Source: a phage. From it: a stretch of DNA of 44,742 bases. The translations under genes and the position numbers were made by a program. This document shows positions 3,825-39,903 of the stretch, piece by piece. Each line of letters opens with the position of its first letter. Position 1 is the stretch's first letter. The DNA is taken from the sequence record PX974237.1; one strand, written 5' to 3'. The notes beneath the pieces are model-generated. The model was not told where the DNA came from and did not search any database. It was given only the letters and a program-made list of their open reading frames with translations.

Positions 3825-3854
3825 TTTGACTCTCCTCTCGTTTGGTATGGGCTA

Positions 3855-3883
3855 ACTATAATAGCGAACTATTCACATGTCAA
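3855..3883 (-). promoter_or_regulatory. Sigma70-like promoter (TTGACA-17-TATAGT), replication-module family
   Basis: Minus-strand TTGACA (3883-3878), 17-bp spacer, TATAGT (3860-3855); about 30 nt upstream of the HNH start. Confidence 0.5.
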
Positions 3884-3887
3884 TGGG

Positions 3888-3916
3888 CTTTTCTAAAATA
3901 ATTAATATGGTACTAT
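3888..3916 (+). promoter_or_regulatory. Candidate promoter for the XRE-type HTH gene (-10 TACTAT, weak -35)
   Basis: TACTAT at 3911-3916 followed by the conserved TCAC motif seen downstream of the early promoters; -35 is poor. Confidence 0.35.
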
Positions 3917-3947
3917 TCACATATCAACTGACTAAGGAGTAACTGAC

Positions 3948-4163
3948 ATGCAACCATCTGAACTAGGCACCCGTGTAGAACAACGCCGTAAAGAACTCGG
4001 CATCTCCCAGCGCCGTTTGGCGGCCCTGACCGGCGTTTCCCAGGGCGCGATTAACCAACTGGCACTTGGAGTAACTCAGGACGTCCGCCCGGCAACGCTG
4101 TTCAAACTGGCGGAAGTTCTGGAAGTAGACGCCAAGTGGCTGGCGTTCGGTGAAGGGGCTTAA
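3948..4163 (+). CDS. XRE-family helix-turn-helix transcriptional regulator
   Basis: 71 aa; GISQRRLAALTGVSQGAINQLALG HTH motif; RBS AAGGAG upstream. Confidence 0.75.
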   Translation: MQPSELGTRVEQRRKELGISQRRLAALTGVSQGAINQLALGVTQDVRPATLFKLAEVLEVDAKWLAFGEGA

Positions 4164-4180: not shown

Positions 4181-6421
4181 CTATTCCAAATCCTCCTCTG
4201 TCACCACCAGCATCTCATTTGGTTCGTATAGTGTCTTCGGCCTTAATCTATCCCCTATTCTTTCGGGTATACGATATGTTCTCGGTACTACTTCGCCGTT
4301 AGCATCGCAACCAAGCATTAGTTCTCCATCTTTCAACATTTTATCAAGATGGGTGTTAGTCACAGAGAAGTCACCGGAACGAGCCACTATCTGCTGCTGA
4401 GTAAAACCGCGACCTGTGTCATCTGACTGTTGCAGGTCTTCCAGTGCCGAAAGTATTGACTCCTTCCTTACTTCATCCCTGCCGCGTTTAACTTCTTCCT
4501 TTACTTTTTGCTTACCTTCTTTCGTCAACCCTTCTTCCCGCTCTTTCTCCTCGTCAGTTTTGAACGGCTCGAAACCCCACGGCATCAACACAAGCGCCTT
4601 GTGTGGTTCAGGAAGGTCCAGGTTTACGATTGTGCCGTATTCTTCTGTGCCCCCCAGGAACTCAACCGCACGGTACTCTTTCGGCGGCGGAGCTTCGCGG
4701 AACTGCACAGACTCCAGCACCATGCCAACCGTTTTCTGTTGAGGACCGTGCTTAAATTTCGAGTGGTATACGTTTATTTGACGGTCGGTTGCACGTTCAA
4801 TCGTCAGTTCCACGTCGACACCCGCATACAATGCTCCACTGCCGCGGGCTTTCTTTCCGCCCTTCGGAGTATGGTGAACGACACCGACAGCGGCTTTAGT
4901 TGCATCGCGCACTTCTTTCAGGATGGCGATAACTTTACCCATACCGATTGTCGTTGATGAACTGTTCTCGTCGAACTTATCAATCGTCAGGGCCAGCGTC
5001 TGGTTAAGGGTGTCGAAGGCAACCATGCCAATAGGTTCATCCCCTGCGGTTTCGCGCATCCTGCGGATTAGAGCTGGAATTTTTTTATCACCATGCGTAG
5101 CGAGTATTTCGCCTATATCGATGACATGTACATAATCTTTACCTTCCTCGCCATATTTAGCCGCGAGCGCATCGATACGTGTGCGTGTAGCTGCACCACC
5201 TTCACCATCAATATAGAAATGGTGGCAACGCTGGGTATCCGCCCCCGCAAACCTGTACCCGGCGGCGCTGAGGTACATCATCCCCAGCGTATAGAACGAT
5301 TTGTACGTGCCAGACTCACCGACGATATCCCAGATACAATCCGACGGCATGTACCCCTCAACGACGAAATCAGCCTTTACCGGCTCCGGTAACTCGTCCT
5401 CCTCTGAGTCCTCGTCGTCTTCCAGGTCGTCGAGGCTGCAAGTTACAGGCTCCTCGTTCTCTGTGCGGTGCAGTTCTTCAATCTCTTCATCCGGTAAATC
5501 AGGCAGAGCCGCACGAATGCTGTTAATACTGATAGGTTGCTTGTCTACGTTAAGCTCGTCTGGCAGGCCGCACATACGCAGGGCCAAATGCTGTCGGCGG
5601 TTAAGCTCGGTGCAAGCGCCGTTGTTTGTATGCTGGCACACAAAGCGCACTTCTTTACCATCAAGCATGATGCTTGTGGAGCCTTTGCCTGTATGCAGAT
5701 GTTCGTTAGGGCATGGGACTTCGTACCCGCGCCCGGAAGATAAAGCGTCAAGGCCAAGCTCGGCTTCGCAGAAATGCGCTATATCCGCGTTAAGCCCATG
5801 CTCATCAGCGGCAAGTGTTTTAGCCTCACGCTTACGCAACCCCATCTCTTCGGCTTTCTTGATGTACCGCTCAGCACGGATAACACGCCCTTCTGTAACC
5901 GTTATCTTCGACTCTTTATGCGGCAGGTAGATAAGGCGGTTGCCGTCTTCTGTGCAGTGGTCGCGCAACGCTTCGTCTATTTCTAACTCTGCACAAATAG
6001 CACGTTGCACCATCCACGCGTCGTTAGAGTTAAACGGCGTGCGAGCTGGAACCAGAACGCGGAAAGCGTAATCTCCGTTTTTACATGCGTGCTGATGCGA
6101 TGCCGTTGTGTGCAGAATATTGAAGAACGGCGCGTTCTTGAATTTGCGTGTCAGGTCGCGGTACTGAGTACGGTTGAGATGGTCGAAATCGAACTTAACC
6201 ACACTGTCTTCCAGGATAGCGTTTTTACGGCGACCACCAACAGGCGCAATAGCTTTCTGTTTAATCTTGGCAGCGTCGTACTCTTCCTTAGTCCATGACG
6301 GGTCCACGGATAAACGCTTCGATGTATCGCAGACATACTCGACAAACTGCTCCAGCGGCATTTCACGCGCTACAGGGTTTTTATCGAATGTGTTACGCAG
6401 CGTTGCAAAAACAATATTCAT
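4181..6421 (-). CDS. Replicative primase-helicase (N-terminal primase-like domain, zinc-binding segment, C-terminal RecA-like DnaB/RepA-type ATPase)
   Basis: 746 aa; Walker A-like GESGTYKS, VHHTPKGG motif typical of RepA/DnaB-like helicases, N-terminal DFDH and SHQH motifs reminiscent of AEP primases, Cys/His cluster CPNEH...C. Confidence 0.65.
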   Translation of the reverse strand: MNIVFATLRNTFDKNPVAREMPLEQFVEYVCDTSKRLSVDPSWTKEEYDAAKIKQKAIAPVGGRRKNAILEDSVVKFDFDHLNRTQYRDLTRKFKNAPFFNILHTTASHQHACKNGDYAFRVLVPARTPFNSNDAWMVQRAICAELEIDEALRDHCTEDGNRLIYLPHKESKITVTEGRVIRAERYIKKAEEMGLRKREAKTLAADEHGLNADIAHFCEAELGLDALSSGRGYEVPCPNEHLHTGKGSTSIMLDGKEVRFVCQHTNNGACTELNRRQHLALRMCGLPDELNVDKQPISINSIRAALPDLPDEEIEELHRTENEEPVTCSLDDLEDDEDSEEDELPEPVKADFVVEGYMPSDCIWDIVGESGTYKSFYTLGMMYLSAAGYRFAGADTQRCHHFYIDGEGGAATRTRIDALAAKYGEEGKDYVHVIDIGEILATHGDKKIPALIRRMRETAGDEPIGMVAFDTLNQTLALTIDKFDENSSSTTIGMGKVIAILKEVRDATKAAVGVVHHTPKGGKKARGSGALYAGVDVELTIERATDRQINVYHSKFKHGPQQKTVGMVLESVQFREAPPPKEYRAVEFLGGTEEYGTIVNLDLPEPHKALVLMPWGFEPFKTDEEKEREEGLTKEGKQKVKEEVKRGRDEVRKESILSALEDLQQSDDTGRGFTQQQIVARSGDFSVTNTHLDKMLKDGELMLGCDANGEVVPRTYRIPERIGDRLRPKTLYEPNEMLVVTEEDLE

Positions 6422-6546
6422 TTCTTTTTCTCCGCACGTTCTAAGGCTTCCTGCATACGGCGCATTGCGCGGTTCATCTTTACCGGCGCGAAGAAATCGG
6501 CGCCGTGTTTCTGTCGGCGCAGCTGTGGAACTATTAACTTCGTCAT
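6418..6546 (-). CDS. Small basic protein (42 aa), translationally coupled to primase-helicase
   Basis: ATG with AAGGA RBS 8 nt upstream; stop overlaps primase-helicase ATG (ATGA). Confidence 0.3.
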   Translation of the reverse strand: MTKLIVPQLRRQKHGADFFAPVKMNRAMRRMQEALERAEKKK

Positions 6547-6615
6547 TGTATAATCCTTGTGCTTACTTTGATGATTTGTGCTTTGGCCCCGACGTTCTTG
6601 CGTTGGGGTTTCTTT

Positions 6616-6906
6616 TTACCGTTTAGCCAACCCTTCCAGCAAATTTTTATACTCTTCAAAATATTCCTCGACCAAATCATCGCCGAAATAGAAGTCGATA
6701 TACTCGAGATTATCTCTTACGTTAAGCGATGCCGACATGGTGCTTAGTTGGCGTAAGCTAATTAGCTTCATTTCTGTTTCTACGCAGAAAGGCCGGTAGG
6801 TATCAAGATGGCAAGAGATATTGAAGCATAAAGCGAACTCTCCGGCCACGGAGTGAACCATATACACTTCGTTTTCTGCTTTATTGTGGAAAATTACGCC
6901 TTTCAT
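6616..6906 (-). CDS. Hypothetical protein (96 aa)
   Basis: ORF; start overlaps stop of upstream HTH gene. Confidence 0.4.
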   Translation of the reverse strand: MKGVIFHNKAENEVYMVHSVAGEFALCFNISCHLDTYRPFCVETEMKLISLRQLSTMSASLNVRDNLEYIDFYFGDDLVEEYFEEYKNLLEGLAKR

Positions 6907-7085
6907 TTCACGTTCTCCTTAATCCATGCTTCGACTTTATTACGGTCAAATGTTCCCGGTAAACGGCGGCCCATAACCTTAATACAGCAGTCAGGGAATT
7001 TGCCGCTGCGCAACCAGTTATTAATGGTCTGACGTGTCACCCCGATACGTTCAGCTACTTCATTCTGCGTCATATAATGCGACAT
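6903..7085 (-). CDS. Small HTH DNA-binding protein (putative transcriptional regulator)
   Basis: Start placed at internal ATG (7085-7083) with AGGAGAT RBS; MSHYMTQNEVAERIGVTRQTINNWLRSGKFP helix-turn-helix; divergent from the early operon. Confidence 0.55.
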   Translation of the reverse strand: MSHYMTQNEVAERIGVTRQTINNWLRSGKFPDCCIKVMGRRLPGTFDRNKVEAWIKENVK

Positions 7086-7116
7086 TTTTATATCTCCTGT
7101 TTGTTTGGTGAAACTG

Positions 7117-7145
7117 AGTATAGGATAGCGGGAATGTAAAAGCAA
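7117..7145 (-). promoter_or_regulatory. Sigma70-like promoter (TTGCTT-17-TATACT) for the leftward HTH operon
   Basis: Minus-strand -35 at 7145-7140 and -10 at 7122-7117 with 17-bp spacer. Confidence 0.45.
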
Positions 7146-7182
7146 CCAATCTCTGTAATATTTAATCTTTACAAAAATGTTA

Positions 7183-7212
7183 TTGAAAGTTCTTGACACA
7201 TGTTTGTATAAT
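7183..7212 (+). promoter_or_regulatory. Strong sigma70-like promoter (TTGAAA-18-TATAAT)
   Basis: TTGAAA at 7183-7188, TATAAT at 7207-7212. Confidence 0.5.
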
Positions 7213-7237
7213 GGTTTTGGGACTTGTATATATTACG

Positions 7238-7274
7238 GAGTTGACGAACCCTCCCCGAGGGATTCGTCAACTCC
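7238..7274 (+). promoter_or_regulatory. Long perfect inverted repeat (hairpin or operator)
   Basis: ggagttgacgaaccctc-ccc-gagggattcgtcaactcc: 17-bp stem with one bulge and a 3-nt loop. Confidence 0.5.
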
Positions 7275-7411
7275 TCCCAGACAGCTGAGATGCTTGCCTT
7301 GGGGTTTATGGATAAGTGTATCTAAATCTCATTTAAAGAAGTAACCCGCTGAAATATCTACTGTTTCTTAATGTGCCGTAGATTCGCAACCGTAAAAATG
7401 TAACGATTATT

Positions 7412-7438
7412 GGGCAGGCTTAAGCCTGCCCTTTAGTT
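7412..7438 (+). terminator. Terminator-like hairpin
   Basis: gggcaggc-ttaa-gcctgccc followed by tttagtt. Confidence 0.45.
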
Positions 7439-7503
7439 ACCAAGTAATAAGAATAAAGGCACAACCCTCCCCGAAGAATCACAACGGCAACGTAACTAAT
7501 CTC

Positions 7504-7532
7504 TTGCACACCCCAACATAATAGGATACTAT
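7504..7532 (+). promoter_or_regulatory. Early promoter (TTGCAC-17-TACTAT), conserved family
   Basis: TTGCAC 7504-7509, TACTAT 7527-7532; about 38 bp near-identical to minus-strand promoters at 19051-19079 and 29089-29117. Confidence 0.55.
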
Positions 7533-7566
7533 TCACTTATCGAAACGAGACATAAGGAATTTAGAA

Positions 7567-7785
7567 ATGAACAAAGCGACCGCAAGCGTAGTTTCCGCAA
7601 TCAAACAAGTTTACGGCATCGATATTTCAGAGCGCGTAATTATCGGGAACAAGCGCAACTTCTTTACGTTAGACACCGACGGAATGGATGAAAATGATTT
7701 TGTTAACGTACAACGTTTCGCTATCGGTAAGGGGCTTCGTAATGAGCCTGCGGGTTACAAGAAATTCGCTATCTACTTTAAATAA
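7567..7785 (+). CDS. Hypothetical early protein (72 aa)
   Basis: First ORF after the early promoter; RBS AAGGAA upstream. Confidence 0.55.
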   Translation: MNKATASVVSAIKQVYGIDISERVIIGNKRNFFTLDTDGMDENDFVNVQRFAIGKGLRNEPAGYKKFAIYFK

Positions 7786-7842
7786 ACCCACGGCGCCGAA
7801 TCATGGCGCCAGTGCCGACGACTCTGAGGGAGGTTGCCGTTA

Positions 7843-7998
7843 ATGAAAATTCGAATAACTGACCGCAGGCTTATAGATTTCGGTATCTCGGTAGGTGATG
7901 TTTTTCTGGCGTTCAGCAGCAACCATTATGGTTTTATGATTGAGTACAAAGGGTCATTATTGTTCGTGTATCGGGATGAATGCGAGGTTCTGGTATGA
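7843..7998 (+). CDS. Hypothetical early protein (51 aa)
   Basis: ATG at 7843 with GAGGGAGG RBS; below the length cutoff of the ORF track. Confidence 0.4.
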   Translation: MKIRITDRRLIDFGISVGDVFLAFSSNHYGFMIEYKGSLLFVYRDECEVLV

Positions 7999-8156
7999 GA
8001 GAAGCATTCGAACGATGGGCCGTCGTCGAGGGTCTGCCGGTTAATAAGGGTTCGAAGAAAGAGTACCTGAACGTTAAGACGCGTCTCGCGTGGCGGGCGT
8101 GGAAAGCTGGTGCGAATGTAATGGCTGGCGCATTTGAGAAGAGAGGCGATTTATGA
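7995..8156 (+). CDS. Hypothetical early protein (53 aa)
   Basis: ATGA start-stop overlap with upstream gene; MREAFERWAVVEGLPVNKG... Confidence 0.4.
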   Translation: MREAFERWAVVEGLPVNKGSKKEYLNVKTRLAWRAWKAGANVMAGAFEKRGDL

Positions 8157-8332
8157 GCAAGTGGATTAAGTGTAGTGAGCGGATGCCTAAATATGGGGAG
8201 TATGTCATTGTCTATGTCCGCGCCGGGTACAGCTATATAGCAAGATACAACGGTGACTTTGTCTGTGATGAATATGTTAAGTGCGCCGGGGTGACCCACT
8301 GGATGCCGTTACCCGAGCCGCCGGAAGTGTGA
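8153..8332 (+). CDS. DUF551-like phage protein (59 aa)
   Basis: MSKWIKCSERMPKYGEYVIV...VTHWMPLPEPPEV matches the DUF551 signature (W-x-C-x-ER-P, THWMPLP). Confidence 0.5.
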   Translation: MSKWIKCSERMPKYGEYVIVYVRAGYSYIARYNGDFVCDEYVKCAGVTHWMPLPEPPEV

Positions 8333-8479
8333 TGTTCAATAGTTTGGGATTTTACTGAGTGACTTACGCTGCTACACAGCAGCGTATCATTTTTCTCATT
8401 TTTGTTCTATTTCACCAAACGCAACAATCGAAGCGACTATTGCAGGAGATGCAACAATACAAACACCAATAAAATTTAC

Positions 8480-8508
8480 TTGCACACTAAGATAGAATAG
8501 GCTACTAT
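8480..8508 (+). promoter_or_regulatory. Early promoter (TTGCAC-17-TACTAT)
   Basis: TTGCAC 8480-8485, TACTAT 8503-8508, then conserved TCAtTTAC motif. Confidence 0.5.
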
Positions 8509-8539
8509 TCATTTACACGAACGAGAGGAGAGACAGAAG

Positions 8540-19079: not shown

Positions 19080-19145
19080 ACTATTTGTTTATGTATTCCG
19101 GTTATTCCACTCAATTGTAAATGTTGGAATAAACTATTCGAATAG

Positions 19146-19174
19146 TTGACTTTTCACCAAAAATGTGCTAAGCT
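19146..19174 (+). promoter_or_regulatory. Candidate promoter (TTGACT-17-TAAGCT with TG extended -10)
   Basis: TTGACT 19146-19151; TGcTAAGCT 19166-19174. Confidence 0.35.
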
Positions 19175-19354
19175 CCACCTGAGCTTGTGAAGTATGAACA
19201 AGCGACCGCGGCGCGGGCAGGTAACGGAGCGGGACGTAAGTCCTGAGTGTAGTTACGCTGACGCGTTCGGAAGGGCCATACTCTATTGCTTGTGTAAAAA
19301 GTAACTGGTTTACTGAGATTACGCCGTTTCTATGTTTAAATGATAAGGACTAGC

Positions 19355-19381
19355 GCCCCGCTTTAAGGCGGGGCTTTACTT
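19355..19381 (+). terminator. GC-rich hairpin with weak T tract just upstream of the spanin RBS (terminator or attenuator)
   Basis: gccccgc-tttaag-gcggggc followed by tttactt. Confidence 0.35.
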
Positions 19382-19398
19382 ATCGAGAAAGGAGAAAC

Positions 19399-19785
19399 AT
19401 GAATCTTAAAGCAACCGTCGTAGCAGGAGCATGTTTCATCATCCTGGCTTACACACACGGCATTTATCAGTACCGCAGCGGCTGGAGCGAAGGCCGGGCG
19501 AATCTCGTTTCGCAGCAACAGCAGAAAGCGCAGGCCGAGTTAGCGAAGAAAACACAACGGCAGCAGCAGGACGAATCAAAGGCCGCCGCCGCCGACAACG
19601 AAGGCAAGACGAAATCAGAGGTGATTACCCGTGAAGTCGTTAAATACATTAAAACGCCAGGTCGCAGCGTGTGCACTTTCGACGATGCTCGCGTCCTGCT
19701 CAAGTCCCACGCCGTCGCAAACGCTAATTCCATTACCGGATACGACGATGATGCAGCCTCCGTGCAAACTGGCAGCTCCAAGTAG
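19399..19785 (+). CDS. i-spanin (Rz-like)
   Basis: 128 aa; N-terminal transmembrane segment, Gln/Ala-rich coiled coil; contains an overlapping lipoprotein ORF in the +1 frame. Confidence 0.55.
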   Translation: MNLKATVVAGACFIILAYTHGIYQYRSGWSEGRANLVSQQQQKAQAELAKKTQRQQQDESKAAAADNEGKTKSEVITREVVKYIKTPGRSVCTFDDARVLLKSHAVANANSITGYDDDAASVQTGSSK

Positions 19786-37917: not shown

Positions 37918-39903
37918 ATGTCAAGCGGATGCGGTGACGTTTTAAGCCTGGCGGATTTACAAACCGCCAAGAAACACCAAATTTTTGAAGCCGAGGTTAT
38001 CACCGGTAAATCCGGCGGGGTTGCTGGTGGCGCCGATATTGATTACGCGACCAACCCTGTTACCGGGCAGACCCAGAAGACGCTCCCTGCCGTGTTGCGT
38101 GACGCTGGTTTTTCTCCTGTATCGTGGGACTTTTCCACCGGCGGTACGTTAACCGCTAATGACCGCGACAAAGTGGTGTATGACCCTGTACGCAAGACGT
38201 GGTACTCGTATACCGGGACTCTGCCGGTTGTTGTCCCCGCATCGTTTAACCCGGTTGGTAACGCTAACTGGAAGCCGCAGACTGACCCGGATTTGCGTAA
38301 TGATTTGGCGTCAAGTACCGCCGGTTTAGGGGCTTCACTGGTGTCTTTTTCCAACGGTAACACCGTTGAAACATTATCTGACGCGGAAGGTGCCAAGAAC
38401 ATAGGCAGTGGCGAAAGGAGTTTGCTTGCACGTAACAATGATATTAAGCATTCTGGCGACTTTTCTACCCTTCAAGCCGCGGTAGATGCGTCGTTAACTA
38501 AAAACGACTTAATTGTTTCTCCGGGTGAGTATACAGAAGCAATCACTCTGGGTAGTAAGCAGATAAAAGGTGTAGGTGGTGCTGCAATATTAAAACCATC
38601 GGCAAACTATGCAAATACTGTACAGGTTAATTTATCCACCCCGCACTGGCAGTTTCGACACAGCGGTGGTTTTGCCGTAGATGGTACAGGTACAACTGGG
38701 GCCGTAGGTATTAGTTTTGACCCGTCAGACCAATATTCCGGACGTCATAATTTTAGTGATTTATACATCCACAACATCAACAAGGCCATTCAGAAGCCTT
38801 CCGGGAACATCGGTAATACATGGAGAAATATTGGGGTATCTACGTGTGATTGGGGGTATTACGCGATTAGTGGCTCAGAGATGCATTGCGGGGCCGATAC
38901 CCTCTACAATATCCACTTCGACGGCATCTCCACCTATGCCGTCTACCTAAACGGCACTGTCAATAACGGCGGGATAGGCGGATGGTGGCTTAAAGACTCC
39001 ATTATTGAGGCTTCCGGAGGCGGCGGGATATACTTAAAAAGCAAATCGGGTGACTGTCCTACATCTCCATGCGGGGTATCCAATGTAGGGATGGAAGCTA
39101 TTGCAACATCATCGGCTGTTCAGGTAGACGGCGTGGCGCAAAAACCGCGAGTTCTCAAGTTGGTAGACACCGCGATATTCTTTGCTGAGTATTCTTATCT
39201 CAATAACATCGAGCTATCCAACTCCAACTTAGTAACTTATGGTTGCCGTTTTGACAACGCTGATGGTAATCAGGATATTGTAGTGGATGCACAAAGCACC
39301 ATCGTAGCCCACGACGTGTATTTAAACGGCAGCTCTGGAAAGGACGTTATTGTAGAGTCTGTCGCGTCGCAATCCGCAACGATAGCCACTACAAACTTGT
39401 CTCTACGAGGAAATTTAACAAGGGGACGAGTGTTTAATACGCCGACGGGGAATAAGTTAAAAGCTATCACATTTGACTCAGGTAGCCATAATTTTTCTGG
39501 TAGCGGTACCGTTAACGGTTCGACTGTATCTGACGGACTTCACGCCGCTACATGTACCGAATTTTCATTCCCTGGGTCCGGTTTATATGAAATGGTAGCG
39601 TCAAGAACGACACTTACATCCGGCAGATGGTACGTGTGGGGCGTCAACTCTCGCCGCCAATCAGGAACAGCAGATGTGAGTATAACGTCAGGTATTACTA
39701 TGGGTAGCGTTTATACTAAGTCTGGTGAGTGGATTAGCACATTTGGTGTGGGTAAAGCTTCCGCTAACGGTACTGTAGGTCTGTACGTCTCTACTGGGGG
39801 AGGTTCAGGTGCTGTTATCAGATTTAGTGACTTCTTCATCGCTGAGTTTACGACGCAGGCTCAGGCTTTAGCTTTCGCTAACTCCCGAATGTCGTTGGCT
39901 TAA
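37918..39903 (+). CDS. Tailspike / receptor-binding protein with beta-helix (pectate-lyase-like) domain
   Basis: 661 aa; GC-rich N-terminal ~180 aa anchor, then AT-richer region beginning DFSTLQAAVDAS... with Gly/Asn/Ser/Thr-rich repeats typical of beta-helix depolymerases. Confidence 0.6.
   Translation: MSSGCGDVLSLADLQTAKKHQIFEAEVITGKSGGVAGGADIDYATNPVTGQTQKTLPAVLRDAGFSPVSWDFSTGGTLTANDRDKVVYDPVRKTWYSYTGTLPVVVPASFNPVGNANWKPQTDPDLRNDLASSTAGLGASLVSFSNGNTVETLSDAEGAKNIGSGERSLLARNNDIKHSGDFSTLQAAVDASLTKNDLIVSPGEYTEAITLGSKQIKGVGGAAILKPSANYANTVQVNLSTPHWQFRHSGGFAVDGTGTTGAVGISFDPSDQYSGRHNFSDLYIHNINKAIQKPSGNIGNTWRNIGVSTCDWGYYAISGSEMHCGADTLYNIHFDGISTYAVYLNGTVNNGGIGGWWLKDSIIEASGGGGIYLKSKSGDCPTSPCGVSNVGMEAIATSSAVQVDGVAQKPRVLKLVDTAIFFAEYSYLNNIELSNSNLVTYGCRFDNADGNQDIVVDAQSTIVAHDVYLNGSSGKDVIVESVASQSATIATTNLSLRGNLTRGRVFNTPTGNKLKAITFDSGSHNFSGSGTVNGSTVSDGLHAATCTEFSFPGSGLYEMVASRTTLTSGRWYVWGVNSRRQSGTADVSITSGITMGSVYTKSGEWISTFGVGKASANGTVGLYVSTGGGSGAVIRFSDFFIAEFTTQAQALAFANSRMSLA

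Follow-up and report, generated by a model that had tools for sequence, protein, structure and literature searches.

What a virulent phage keeps in a 481-bp stretch of DNA between two divergent operons is the question raised by the interval at 7086..7566 of the sequence analysed here (the window, 44,742 nucleotides in all), whose source is a Kagunavirus of the Guernseyvirinae that is 97-99% identical to JSSK01 and Bas70. The interval runs from the start codon of a minus-strand HTH_17 gene to the ATG at 7567 that opens the rightward early operon, whose first gene (7567..7785, plus strand, 72 aa) is replaced by other genes in many relatives. The original prediction had described these roughly 480 bp as a non-coding, divergent control hub with one leftward and two rightward promoters, a hairpin-forming inverted repeat and a terminator-like hairpin, and all of these elements are present: a leftward promoter (P_L) faces away from two rightward ones (P1 and P_R), and no ORF in the interval, including the part downstream of P1, has a ribosome-binding site. 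Two minus-strand ORFs of 33 and 38 aa annotated here in Bas70 are taken to be spurious, since they span mosaic junctions and have no ribosome-binding sites. The interval is the main early control region of the phage and is a mosaic of three units, namely P_L, a rightward non-coding unit and a conserved block that carries P_R.

P_L (7117..7145, minus strand; -35 TTGCTT at 7145-7140, 17-nt spacer, -10 TATACT at 7122-7117) serves the HTH_17 gene and the rest of the helicase-primase operon; its predicted start is at about 7110, and a good AGGAG ribosome-binding site follows some 25 nt downstream of the promoter. A generic promoter scan overlooked it because its -35 matches at only three of six positions; promoters of this form (TTGNTT-17-TATACT, or TTGTGT-17 and an extended -10) occupy the equivalent position in 37 relatives, across four sequence contexts that are otherwise unrelated. 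The leftward operon encodes, in order, the HTH_17 protein (6903..7085, minus strand, 60 aa), a 96-aa protein, a 42-aa protein and a 746-aa helicase-primase. The small helix-turn-helix gene that had been predicted is indeed a gene for a DNA-binding protein, matching Pfam HTH_17 (PF12728) over residues 4-58 (E 1.6e-8; 35.1 bits against a cut-off of 27) and PHROG 66, 'excisionase and transcriptional regulator'. Its AF2 model (pLDDT 87) points to the winged-helix fold of HTH_17 family members, and the nearest solved folds found by Foldseek are BldC, RacA, Pukovnik Xis and RdfS, with TM scores of 0.58-0.70 and probabilities of 0.97-1.0 but E-values of only 0.01-0.2. The protein thus resembles the small MerR-like winged-helix proteins BldC, Xis and RdfS in size and in Pfam membership, but the phage lacks an integrase for an excisionase to partner. 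Proteins of the BldC/Xis class bind direct repeats as monomers, and no direct-repeat array suited to them was identified in the interval. Membership in the AlpA family was also considered and rejected, as the protein has no Phage_AlpA (PF05930) match at E <= 0.01 and AlpA is missing both from its PDB sequence matches and from its top 50 Foldseek PDB matches. Only one time course has been published for a phage that carries this cassette (PMC12645636), and in it the helix-turn-helix gene vB_Eco_K1B4_008, which by gene order is probably the HTH_17 gene, is reported to peak early.

The second unit begins at P1 (7183..7212, plus strand), a near-consensus sigma-70 promoter (TTGAAA-18-TATAAT, matching at 11 of 12 positions) with a predicted start at about 7219 and one of only three such sites in the 44.7-kb window, where 0.5 would be expected. 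With its own promoter, an intrinsic terminator and no translated ORF, the unit has the build of a stand-alone small RNA gene; to judge from these signals, it probably makes a non-coding RNA of about 218 nt (7219..7436, plus strand; here the win-type cassette), presumably transcribed as a discrete molecule, whose predicted fold has an energy of -77.3 kcal/mol (z -5.7). Its 5' end would carry the long inverted repeat, described earlier as 37 bp and here 38 nt at 7237..7274 (plus strand), with 15-nt arms that are 93% complementary. As RNA, this repeat forms a continuous 17-bp stem (dG -28.8 kcal/mol, z -7.2), and since it begins at about +18 of P1 as a continuous nested palindrome, it has the form of an RNA hairpin and not that of a spaced operator. 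A 17-nt repeat at 7247 and 7463 was set aside, as its second copy is not kept in relatives.

The 3' module of the unit (allele i; 7349..7473, plus strand) is shared with L021-type cassettes, most L025-type cassettes and Jerseyviruses, and within it 7378-7462 is almost invariant across genera that are otherwise widely different; among its 18 distinct sequences, substitutions concentrate in the terminator loop and at 7464-7473. The segment 7340-7411 has no predicted structure (z 0.2), and is followed by the intrinsic terminator (7412..7438, plus strand), which reads GGGCAGGC-TTAA-GCCTGCCC and then TTTAGTT. Its hairpin at 7412-7431 (dG -17.8, z -4.3) has a near-invariant stem, with one substitution in one sequence, and a loop that varies among relatives; among the terminator-like sites of the first 20 kb it shares the top rank with a hairpin at 19355-19374. 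Because the T-tract is short, read-through from this terminator into P_R is possible. The cassette has no evident kin among known RNAs or host sequences: Rfam 15 gives zero matches at gathering score across the whole window and only chance-level matches (E > 0.8) when 6900-7700 and 19100-19420 are searched at E <= 10, the tRNA/tmRNA scan returned nothing, and a search of 5,426 complete E. coli genomes with 7150-7475 by blastn gave zero matches, which at that sensitivity argues that it is neither host- nor prophage-derived. Nor did a search of the phage genome for antisense targets find any, as duplex energies against 125 phage translation-initiation regions are weaker than those of shuffled RNA and the longest complementary k-mer is 10 nt, against 10-14 in shuffles. 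OQ696342.1 carries the same cassette at 97% identity (about 18.9-19.5 kb, reverse strand), and public time-course RNA-seq is available for it as PRJNA939978 / PRJCA028359.

Comparison with relatives sets this unit between P_L and P_R in context. At least five unrelated cassettes, all of one build, occupy this slot in 37 relatives: in every locus a near-consensus promoter, with a perfect or near-perfect -35 and a TAnnnT -10, lies 5-40 bp from P_L and is followed by a hairpin-rich body of 130-190 nt and one of two terminator alleles, with order and orientation constant and about 270-350 nt from the cassette promoter to P_R. The pieces have separate histories. The block 7086-7149 follows the HTH allele and ends 4 bp past the P_L -35, 7150-7348 is rare (of 390 related GenBank records, only about 21 have this 200-bp segment), 7349-7473 is found in a subset, and 7474-7552 is conserved; segment boundaries coincide with conserved promoter blocks, and HTH alleles and cassette types assort independently. 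Modules are also reused from elsewhere in the genome, since the L037-type cassette holds an inverted copy of a terminator hairpin from the spanin locus.

The commonest of these cassettes, the L004-type, is a paralogue of a leader directly upstream of the spanin/head genes (19146..19376, plus strand), which comprises an extended -10 promoter, a structured leader and the terminator at 19355-19374. The leader is 79% identical to the L004-type cassette and 96-99.6% identical in 180 records. In this family 25 pairs, eight of them doubly changed, retain 100% pairing, as against 0-1 in slid controls; on the strength of these compensatory changes, the L004-type cassette and the spanin leader are a true structured RNA element. 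Copies of the win-type cassette are 93-99% identical, a level at which covariation has no power. With filters off, covariance model R1, which describes the other cassette family, matches only 19180-19290 of the window and not 7219-7436, and the win-type RNA is therefore not homologous to the leader family. A 36-aa ORF in the leader was rejected as a gene: 1-nt indels break it in two relatives, and the paralogue lacks its start codon.

The third unit is the conserved block at 7474..7552 (plus strand), in which P_R has its -35 TTGCAC at 7504-7509, a 17-nt spacer, its -10 TACTAT at 7527-7532 and a predicted start at about 7539. The block is 94-100% identical in 34 of 36 readable relatives (91% and 85% in the other two), its flanks vary, and the 35-45 bp of the P_R promoter itself have three paralogous copies in the window, at 8479-8526, 19079-19035 and 29118-29082. 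Four Jerseyvirus records start or stop inside the block, but at differing ends; PhageTerm detected no termini in fBC-Eco01, and headful packaging has been reported for Shashou. We therefore rejected a packaging site or genome end here, and take these record ends to be arbitrary linearisation points.

Overlapping the P_R -10 is a 14-bp dyad, AATAGGATACTATT (AATAG-N4-CTATT; 7520..7533), that is a candidate operator. Seven exact copies occur in the window where 0.02 would be expected, all of them at promoters of early or DNA-metabolism/replication operons, so that a dyad-symmetric site recurs at promoters far above chance, as in a repressor-operator regulon of the HTH_3 type. Its arms are invariant, its centre is variable, and it occupies two registers relative to the -35 and -10, lying between them at three promoters (1036, 3860 and 42238), none of which has a leader terminator. 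Bas70 has the same seven sites in syntenic positions, SE2 has a symmetric variant (TAGTAG-AGTA-CTACTA), and two genome papers, one of them on fBC-Eco01, list the same seven sites as 'phage promoters' found with PHIRE. The dyad at 7520-7533 is a better operator candidate than the long inverted repeat and is presumably bound by a repressor; it could also be, in part, a symmetric -10-like promoter sequence and not a protein site. An 8-mer shared by P_L and P_R, ATAGGATA, is compatible with chance (19 of 100 shuffles) and is not kept at P_L in other alleles.

Two phage proteins could bind the dyad. A Cro/CI-type HTH_3 gene (3948..4163, plus strand, 71 aa; Pfam HTH_3, E 3.9e-13) has dyads at 3860-3873 and 3904-3917 in its own divergent control region, and the site suits a Cro-like dimer better than it suits the HTH_17 protein, whose recognition helix varies among relatives in which the dyad is constant. 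Comparing the conservation of binders with that of the dyad gives a mixed outcome: the HTH_3 protein is 93-97% conserved in 14 of 16 relatives, but the L057 version has only 49% identity and different dyads at its own promoter, and the P_R dyad of L057 has nonetheless stayed the same. Of the two candidates, the Cro-like HTH_3 protein is the likelier, and the HTH_17 protein, of the monomeric BldC/Xis type, the less likely.

The operators of phage 434 are likewise 14 bp long, with the form ACAA-N6-TTGT. The likeness to lambdoid Cro/CI regulons extends to a short HTH_3 protein paired with a 14-bp dyad of invariant arms and variable centre, to the overlap of dyad and core promoter, and to the two dyads (3860, 3904) in the regulator's own divergent region, but here the dyads are candidate operators only and are spread over seven promoters instead of forming a tripartite cluster. 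The comparison with a genetic switch in the original prediction fits poorly: an independent unit separates P_L from P_R, which are some 390 bp from each other, the promoters do not overlap, there is one dyad at P_R and none at P_L, and there are no overlapping tripartite operators and no sign of bistability. Part of the reasoning behind it stands, as no integrase appears in the full annotation of the collinear relative Bas70 and none is reported in the fBC-Eco01 genome paper; the further claim that no other lysogeny gene is present is not strictly true given the HTH_3 gene at 3948-4163, although that 71-aa product is the only Cro/CI-type protein and no repressor of CI length was found.

As a whole, we consider it moderately probable that the interval works as three modules. 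P_L, a moderate sigma-70 promoter, would start the operon from HTH_17 to helicase-primase. Back to back with it, P1, the best sigma-70 promoter of the genome, would drive an autonomous rightward unit of promoter, RNA and strong terminator, in which the long inverted repeat would serve as the 5' stabilising hairpin of the ~218-nt RNA and the terminator at 7412-7431 would also shield P_R from P1. Recombination would place one of at least five interchangeable non-coding cassettes in this slot. The unit would most likely yield an early RNA that is stable and abundant and acts independently, and the dyad would most likely serve as operator for a single dimeric regulator encoded by the phage, which turns off the seven promoters together.

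Two facts count against a free RNA: the cassette always points towards the right operon, and the 24 nt that separate the end of the 19146 leader paralogue from the spanin start contain no promoter. This orientation and the promoterless spanin junction fit a cis-acting leader better, and they give rise to an alternative that we regard as possible though doubtful, in which P1 is constitutive and its transcripts stop at 7412-7431 early in infection but later read into the right operon by antitermination, once the HTH_17 protein, or the leader RNA itself in a put-like way, has rendered RNA polymerase terminator-resistant; the late operon would be run from 19146 by the same logic. All 37 loci have the strong promoter, the leader of about 200 nt and the strong terminator, oriented to the downstream operon, that such control would use, and the late genes at 19146 depend on read-through given the missing promoter. 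The regulator would also be of a suitable kind, as the HTH_17 protein is small, the gene equated with it by gene order peaks early, and AlpA, a small phage-type regulator, acts in this way from a site between the -35 and -10 (PMC7969949). Against this, the protein lacks both the Phage_AlpA match (E <= 0.01) and AlpA among its top 50 Foldseek matches, P1 and the 19146 promoter have no motif in common, spacers included, and the right operon has its own promoter, so that read-through is not needed there; moreover, the leader family does not include any homologue of the win-type RNA, and HTH alleles assort independently of cassette types. The same balance emerges from comparison with lambda PR'-6S RNA-tR' under Q and with P. 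aeruginosa AlpA (PMC7969949, PMC9371919), which share with our locus the succession of sigma-70 promoter, short untranslated transcript, terminator and operon, the intrinsic terminators within leaders (7412-7431 after P1 and 19355-19374 after the 19146 promoter) and a small phage-type helix-turn-helix protein encoded nearby, but here no Phage_AlpA or Q family signal was found, no shared binding element was identified in the two promoters that precede terminators, and the downstream operon has P_R.

We think it unlikely that the cassette lacks a functional product and is recombinational debris kept only to insulate P_L from P_R. The extreme mosaicism, the reuse of promoter and terminator modules (as with the inverted spanin-locus hairpin in the L037-type), the match between segment boundaries and conserved promoter blocks and the empty antisense target search within the phage are all what such debris would leave, but they are opposed by the retention of promoter, hairpin-rich body and terminator in order and orientation at 37 of 37 loci, by the near-invariance of 7378-7462 across divergent genera and by the compensatory changes through which the L004-type body keeps its base pairs.

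Transcription from P1 might instead open or prime an origin through an R-loop in AT-rich DNA. Origins of this type include phage T4 oriF and oriG, ColE1 RNA II and the T7 primary origin. The interval adjoins the helicase-primase operon, P1 is strong, GC content falls to 29-31% at 7100-7250 and the cumulative GC skew has its global minimum at 7541, but this extremum coincides with the flip in gene orientation, an equally good explanation, and iterons or DnaA-box-like repeats were not found. As the strong terminator and stable hairpins point to a released RNA, and the cassettes are unrelated in sequence where the helicase-primase is conserved, we judge an origin improbable.

Least of all can we credit the original proposal that the inverted repeat is an HTH_17 operator for autoregulation or an early-to-middle switch. 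The palindrome does lie close to the HTH gene, and the gene equated with it by gene order peaks early, but 11 relatives with a 98%-identical HTH_17 protein carry a different cassette without the repeat, which is also absent from most of the 390 records. Moreover, the repeat sits beyond the P1 start, some 90 bp past the P_L -35 and 230 bp before the P_R -35, and is a continuous palindrome of the hairpin type, and the fold class of the HTH_17 protein (BldC, Xis) binds direct repeats as monomers.

The arrangement has parallels among mobile and non-coding elements of other phages. Arbiol, Comeau and Krisch reportedly described, in 2010, promoter-early stem-loop (PeSL) mobile regulatory cassettes in T4-type phages. 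Here, too, conserved promoter or stem-loop blocks are repeated around the genome and edge variable segments, which homologous recombination at the blocks would shuffle, but the phage group and the sequences are others and the shuffled segment beside the block is non-coding. Lambda OOP, P22 sar and P4 CI RNA either pair as antisense RNAs with identified transcripts of their phages or are processed out of such transcripts. Our predicted RNA resembles them as a short, hairpin-bounded, untranslated transcript of an early control region, but differs in that the phage genome yielded no complementary target for it and there is no Rfam match.

It is possible, though doubtful, that Guernseyvirinae time infection through RNA leaders, with interchangeable promoter-RNA-terminator units both in the slot between P_L and P_R and ahead of the spanin and head genes, whose read-through a phage factor, or the RNA itself in the manner of HK022 put, would switch on. 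If so, virulent therapeutic phages would possess lambda-like antitermination with swappable non-coding cassettes. In a second version of this reading, the abundant early RNA may be a decoy or counter-defence RNA, a role that would explain its free exchange. Phage therapy and food biocontrol are common reasons for isolating Kagunaviruses and Jerseyviruses, which also serve as small chassis for synthetic phage genomes, and we found no functional work in the literature on the order of gene expression in either group. The analysis offers three handles for such work: a regulon-like set of seven dyad sites, for which there are two candidate regulators; a predicted early non-coding RNA that lacks annotation, is probably very abundant and differs between close relatives; and a covariation-supported leader ahead of the late genes. 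Several annotations also call for correction, among them 'phage RNA polymerase promoters' reported in a phage without an annotated RNA polymerase gene, small ORFs called inside the non-coding RNA, and an over-extended 98-aa 'PrtN' protein. For genome engineers, the seemingly 'empty' 480 bp carries three promoters and a terminator.

The interval from 7086 to 7566 fills exactly the gap between the start codon of the HTH_17 gene (6903-7085, minus strand) and the ATG at 7567, and it holds every element originally listed there. The first rightward promoter, P1 (7183-7212, plus strand; TTGAAA-18-TATAAT), is an 11/12 match, one of three such sites in 44.7 kb against 0.5 expected, and the second, P_R (plus strand), has its -35, TTGCAC, at 7504-7509 and, after 17 nt, its -10, TACTAT, at 7527-7532. 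The leftward promoter P_L (7145-7117, minus strand; TTGCTT-17-TATACT) was missed by a generic promoter scan, and its form recurs in relatives, where four contexts of unrelated sequence have it at the matching place. The inverted repeat (7237-7274) has a continuous 17-bp stem (dG -28.8, z -7.2), and the terminator-like hairpin (7412-7431, then TTTAGTT) is the joint-best site of its kind within the first 20 kb. Of the original prediction of a switch-like hub, the regulatory hub stands, its features being real and non-random; the region is not a lambda-like switch and is a hub of the ordinary kind, a phage early control region. Two unannotated aspects of it merit follow-up: the non-coding cassette, which is interchangeable, and the dyad regulon of seven promoters.

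By megablast, 217 phage records match 6400-8400, all Guernseyvirinae, the best being Escherichia phages JSSK01 and Bas70 (genus Kagunavirus), and the window is collinear with Bas70, whose genome is fully annotated. Replication genes form a leftward block that closes with helicase-primase, a pair of small genes and the HTH gene, and next comes a long rightward block of small early genes and those for lysis, terminase, head and tail. No integrase is annotated in Bas70, and lysogeny genes are likewise not reported in the published genome descriptions of relatives. The 60-aa HTH product matches Pfam HTH_17 with a score exceeding the cut-off; in some database entries it is a 98-aa 'PrtN' (6903-7199, minus strand, GTG at 7199), probably an annotation artefact since the extension passes through P_L and crosses a mosaic junction at 7149, and in many relatives it starts at Met5, giving 56 aa. 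Within the leftward operon, an 11-bp hairpin (6585-6610) between the 96-aa and 42-aa genes is terminator-like on the plus strand only; the helicase-primase gene lies downstream of it and has a published peak later than that of the HTH gene. Cumulative GC skew across the whole window is lowest at 7541, where P_R starts, and highest at 39829, and gene orientation flips at both extremes.

The inverted repeat had been proposed as an operator for the HTH protein, a role that comparison with relatives contradicts: eleven loci (L004-L006, L008-L009, L011-L014, L016 and L035) encode a 98%-identical HTH protein, share 7086-7149 with the window and have a cassette of the L004-type from which the repeat is wholly missing. 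The repeat starts about 18 nt past the predicted P1 start and is a nested palindrome down to a 3-nt loop, and its form is that of an RNA hairpin. Two small ORFs annotated within the interval in Bas70 (7169-7270 and 7420-7536, both minus strand) are probably spurious, as each overlaps P_R or the hairpin and neither has a ribosome-binding site. The sequence AACCCTCCCCGA(G/A)G(G/A)AT, a direct repeat of 17 nt at 7247-7263 and 7463-7479, is probably coincidental, given that the second copy is not kept in relatives. On either side of the P1 -35 (7170-7180 and 7198-7208) stand inverted, imperfect copies of TACAAAAATGT, with one more (7082-7092) overlapping the HTH start codon; these copies are confined to the rare cassette.

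Comparison of 37 related loci from IMG/VR and GenBank divided the interval into four segments of differing behavior. The first (7086-7149) travels with the HTH allele and ends 4 bp past the P_L -35; the second (7150-7348), to which the inverted repeat and P1 belong, was found in just 6 of the 37 loci and about 21 of 390 GenBank records; the third (7349-7473), with the terminator, is common to another subset that includes Salmonella Jerseyviruses; and the fourth (7474-7552) is present in all relatives with readable sequence, at 94-100% identity except in two, with variable genes to its right. Clustering of the loci gave five cassette types (six loci of the window's type, 17 L004-type, nine L025-type, and two and three of the rarer types), and HTH alleles assort independently of them. 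Three further copies of the 35-45 bp P_R promoter block (8479-8526, plus strand; 19079-19035 and 29118-29082, minus strand), 75-92% identical with spacer and first transcribed bases included, all stand where operons begin. In relatives, such blocks also mark the boundaries of segments, which suggests that they act as portable recombination sites. Four Jerseyvirus records (celemicas, blauehaus, templet and skrot) start or end, each at another base, within the P_R block or the conserved 3' module, which probably reflects arbitrary linearization of circularly permuted genomes, not a physical end.

Every cassette has the same architecture: a perfect or near-perfect -35 (TTGACA or TTGACT) and a TAnnnT -10 spaced 16-18 nt apart, next to P_L and pointing away from it; a body rich in hairpins, with no ORF that could be translated; a terminator in either of two 3' modules, GGGCAGGC-loop-GCCTGCCC-TTT or a compound stem of -32.6 kcal/mol followed by UUUU; and P_R some 75 to 90 nt beyond. 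Within the 3' module that the window's type carries, 7378-7462 is nearly invariant among 18 distinct sequences, with variation falling in the terminator loop and 7464-7473 and a single substitution, in one sequence, in the terminator stem. This common architecture and near-invariant 3' module make the unit look like a small non-coding transcription unit. The predicted window RNA of about 218 nt (7219 to ~7436) folds at -77.3 kcal/mol (z -5.7), and copies of this type are too similar to one another for a covariation test.

Such a test was afforded by a paralogue of the L004-type cassette, the commonest, which is 79% identical to window positions 19146-19288. There, an unannotated leader (19146-19376, plus strand) comprises an extended -10 promoter, a structured RNA of about 195 nt and a terminator, ends 24 nt ahead of the Rz-spanin start, with head genes following, and is 96-99.6% identical in phages of Escherichia and Salmonella, 180 GenBank records in all. 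A covariance model built on the two paralogues found a diverged copy at the corresponding place in Jerseyvirus SE2 (42 bits). In the alignment fitted to that model, all 25 predicted pairs remain paired across three lineages and eight changed on both sides, one position appearing as C-G, A-U and U-A; sliding the 3' partner by 1-3 columns left 0-1 doubly changed pairs. Bas70 has an annotated ORF of 36 aa at this place; single-base indels disrupt it in two relatives and the paralogue lacks its start codon, and Rfam does not represent the leader. Judged by this sequence comparison, the slot beside the HTH gene is occupied, in nearly half of the relatives, by a non-coding element that is genuinely structured. 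Homology of the window's own cassette to this family was rejected, as the model had no match at 7219-7436 with filters off.

The window cassette most likely specifies a stable, abundant early RNA that would act on its own, for it comes with a near-consensus promoter of its own, a hairpin close to each end (one ~18 nt into the predicted RNA, the terminator at its 3' end) and a strong terminator, while P_R independently serves the downstream operon. It matches no Rfam family, has no similarity to E. coli genomes, and shows no above-chance complementarity to phage translation-initiation regions or any phage sequence. Its chief competitor is a leader acting in cis, with a terminator that would be overridden at a later stage, after the pattern of Q at lambda PR'-6S-tR' and of Pseudomonas AlpA (PMC7969949). 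The single fixed orientation of all cassettes fits such a leader better, as does the spanin-locus paralogue, between whose terminator and the spanin start we found no promoter, leaving late genes with no other nearby. The HTH_17 protein gave no signal of the AlpA or Q family, and a search for a promoter element in common found none. With low probability, the interval could have a role as a replication origin, being AT-rich at 7100-7250, adjacent to the helicase-primase operon and at the global skew minimum (7541), but that extremum coincides with the gene-orientation flip and no iterons were found.

A better candidate operator than the inverted repeat is the dyad AATAG-N4-CTATT at P_R, whose -10 falls within AATAGGATACTATT (7520-7533). 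Seven exact copies occur in the window (1036, 3860, 7520, 8496, 19050, 29088 and 42238) against 0.02 expected, with a one-mismatch copy at 3904. All lie within promoters, in two registers, TTGCAC-N10-dyad overlapping a TACTAT -10 and TTGACA-N4-dyad abutting a TATAGT -10, and their arms are invariant and centers variable both among sites and among relatives. Bas70 has the seven sites in synteny, and SE2 has an additional, symmetrically changed version (TAGTAG-AGTA-CTACTA). The sites stand upstream of the early right operon and leftward DNA-metabolism operons; none of the seven precedes structural genes, and the dyad is absent from P_L and P1. Two genome papers had identified these same seven with PHIRE, and that of fBC-Eco01 ascribed them to an RNA polymerase that the phage itself would encode; the annotation of the collinear Bas70 includes no gene for such an enzyme.

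Of two candidate binders, the one favored on present evidence is the Cro/CI-type HTH_3 protein (3948-4163, plus strand, 71 aa); 14 of 16 relatives keep it at 93-97%, and its predicted recognition helix does not vary. Its divergent control region (3825-3947) contains an exact dyad at 3860-3873 and, 44 bp away, one with a single mismatch at 3904-3917, and is more switch-like than 7086-7566. The other is the HTH_17 protein, whose confident model (pLDDT 87) resembles BldC, RacA, Xis and RdfS, winged-helix proteins of small size that recognize direct repeats, either as monomers or in head-to-tail arrays, and its recognition helix varies (TRQTINNW, TRRTLNNW, SPMTLNRW) among phages with an identical P_R dyad; this likeness and variability together would favor the Cro-like protein. 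Locus L057 is a counter-case, with an HTH_3 protein of 49% identity and differing own-promoter dyads but an unchanged P_R dyad. Published expression data comprise one coarse RNA-seq time course of vB_Eco_K1B4, with intergenic transcripts outside its analysis, in which helix-turn-helix gene 008 is among four genes peaking during the initial 30 min, and helicase-primase gene 005 and 'specific DNA binding' gene 004 are in the middle class (PMC12645636). From gene order, we infer that 008 is the HTH_17 gene and 004 the HTH_3 gene; the genome record of that phage (OQ696342) carries the window's cassette at 97% identity.

The 19146 promoter has no exact dyad, and a near-dyad with one arm mismatch overlaps its -35. 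A 16-bp perfect palindrome, AACTATTCGAATAGTT (19131-19146), presents the dyad half-sites in everted order and abuts that -35 in 26 of 29 distinct relatives, which suggests that the dyad-regulator family also touches this late-leader promoter. Three TTATTCC/GGAATAA repeats lie upstream of it (19096-19135), and palindrome and repeats are kept in nearly all relatives, even where the neighboring divergent promoter has been replaced.
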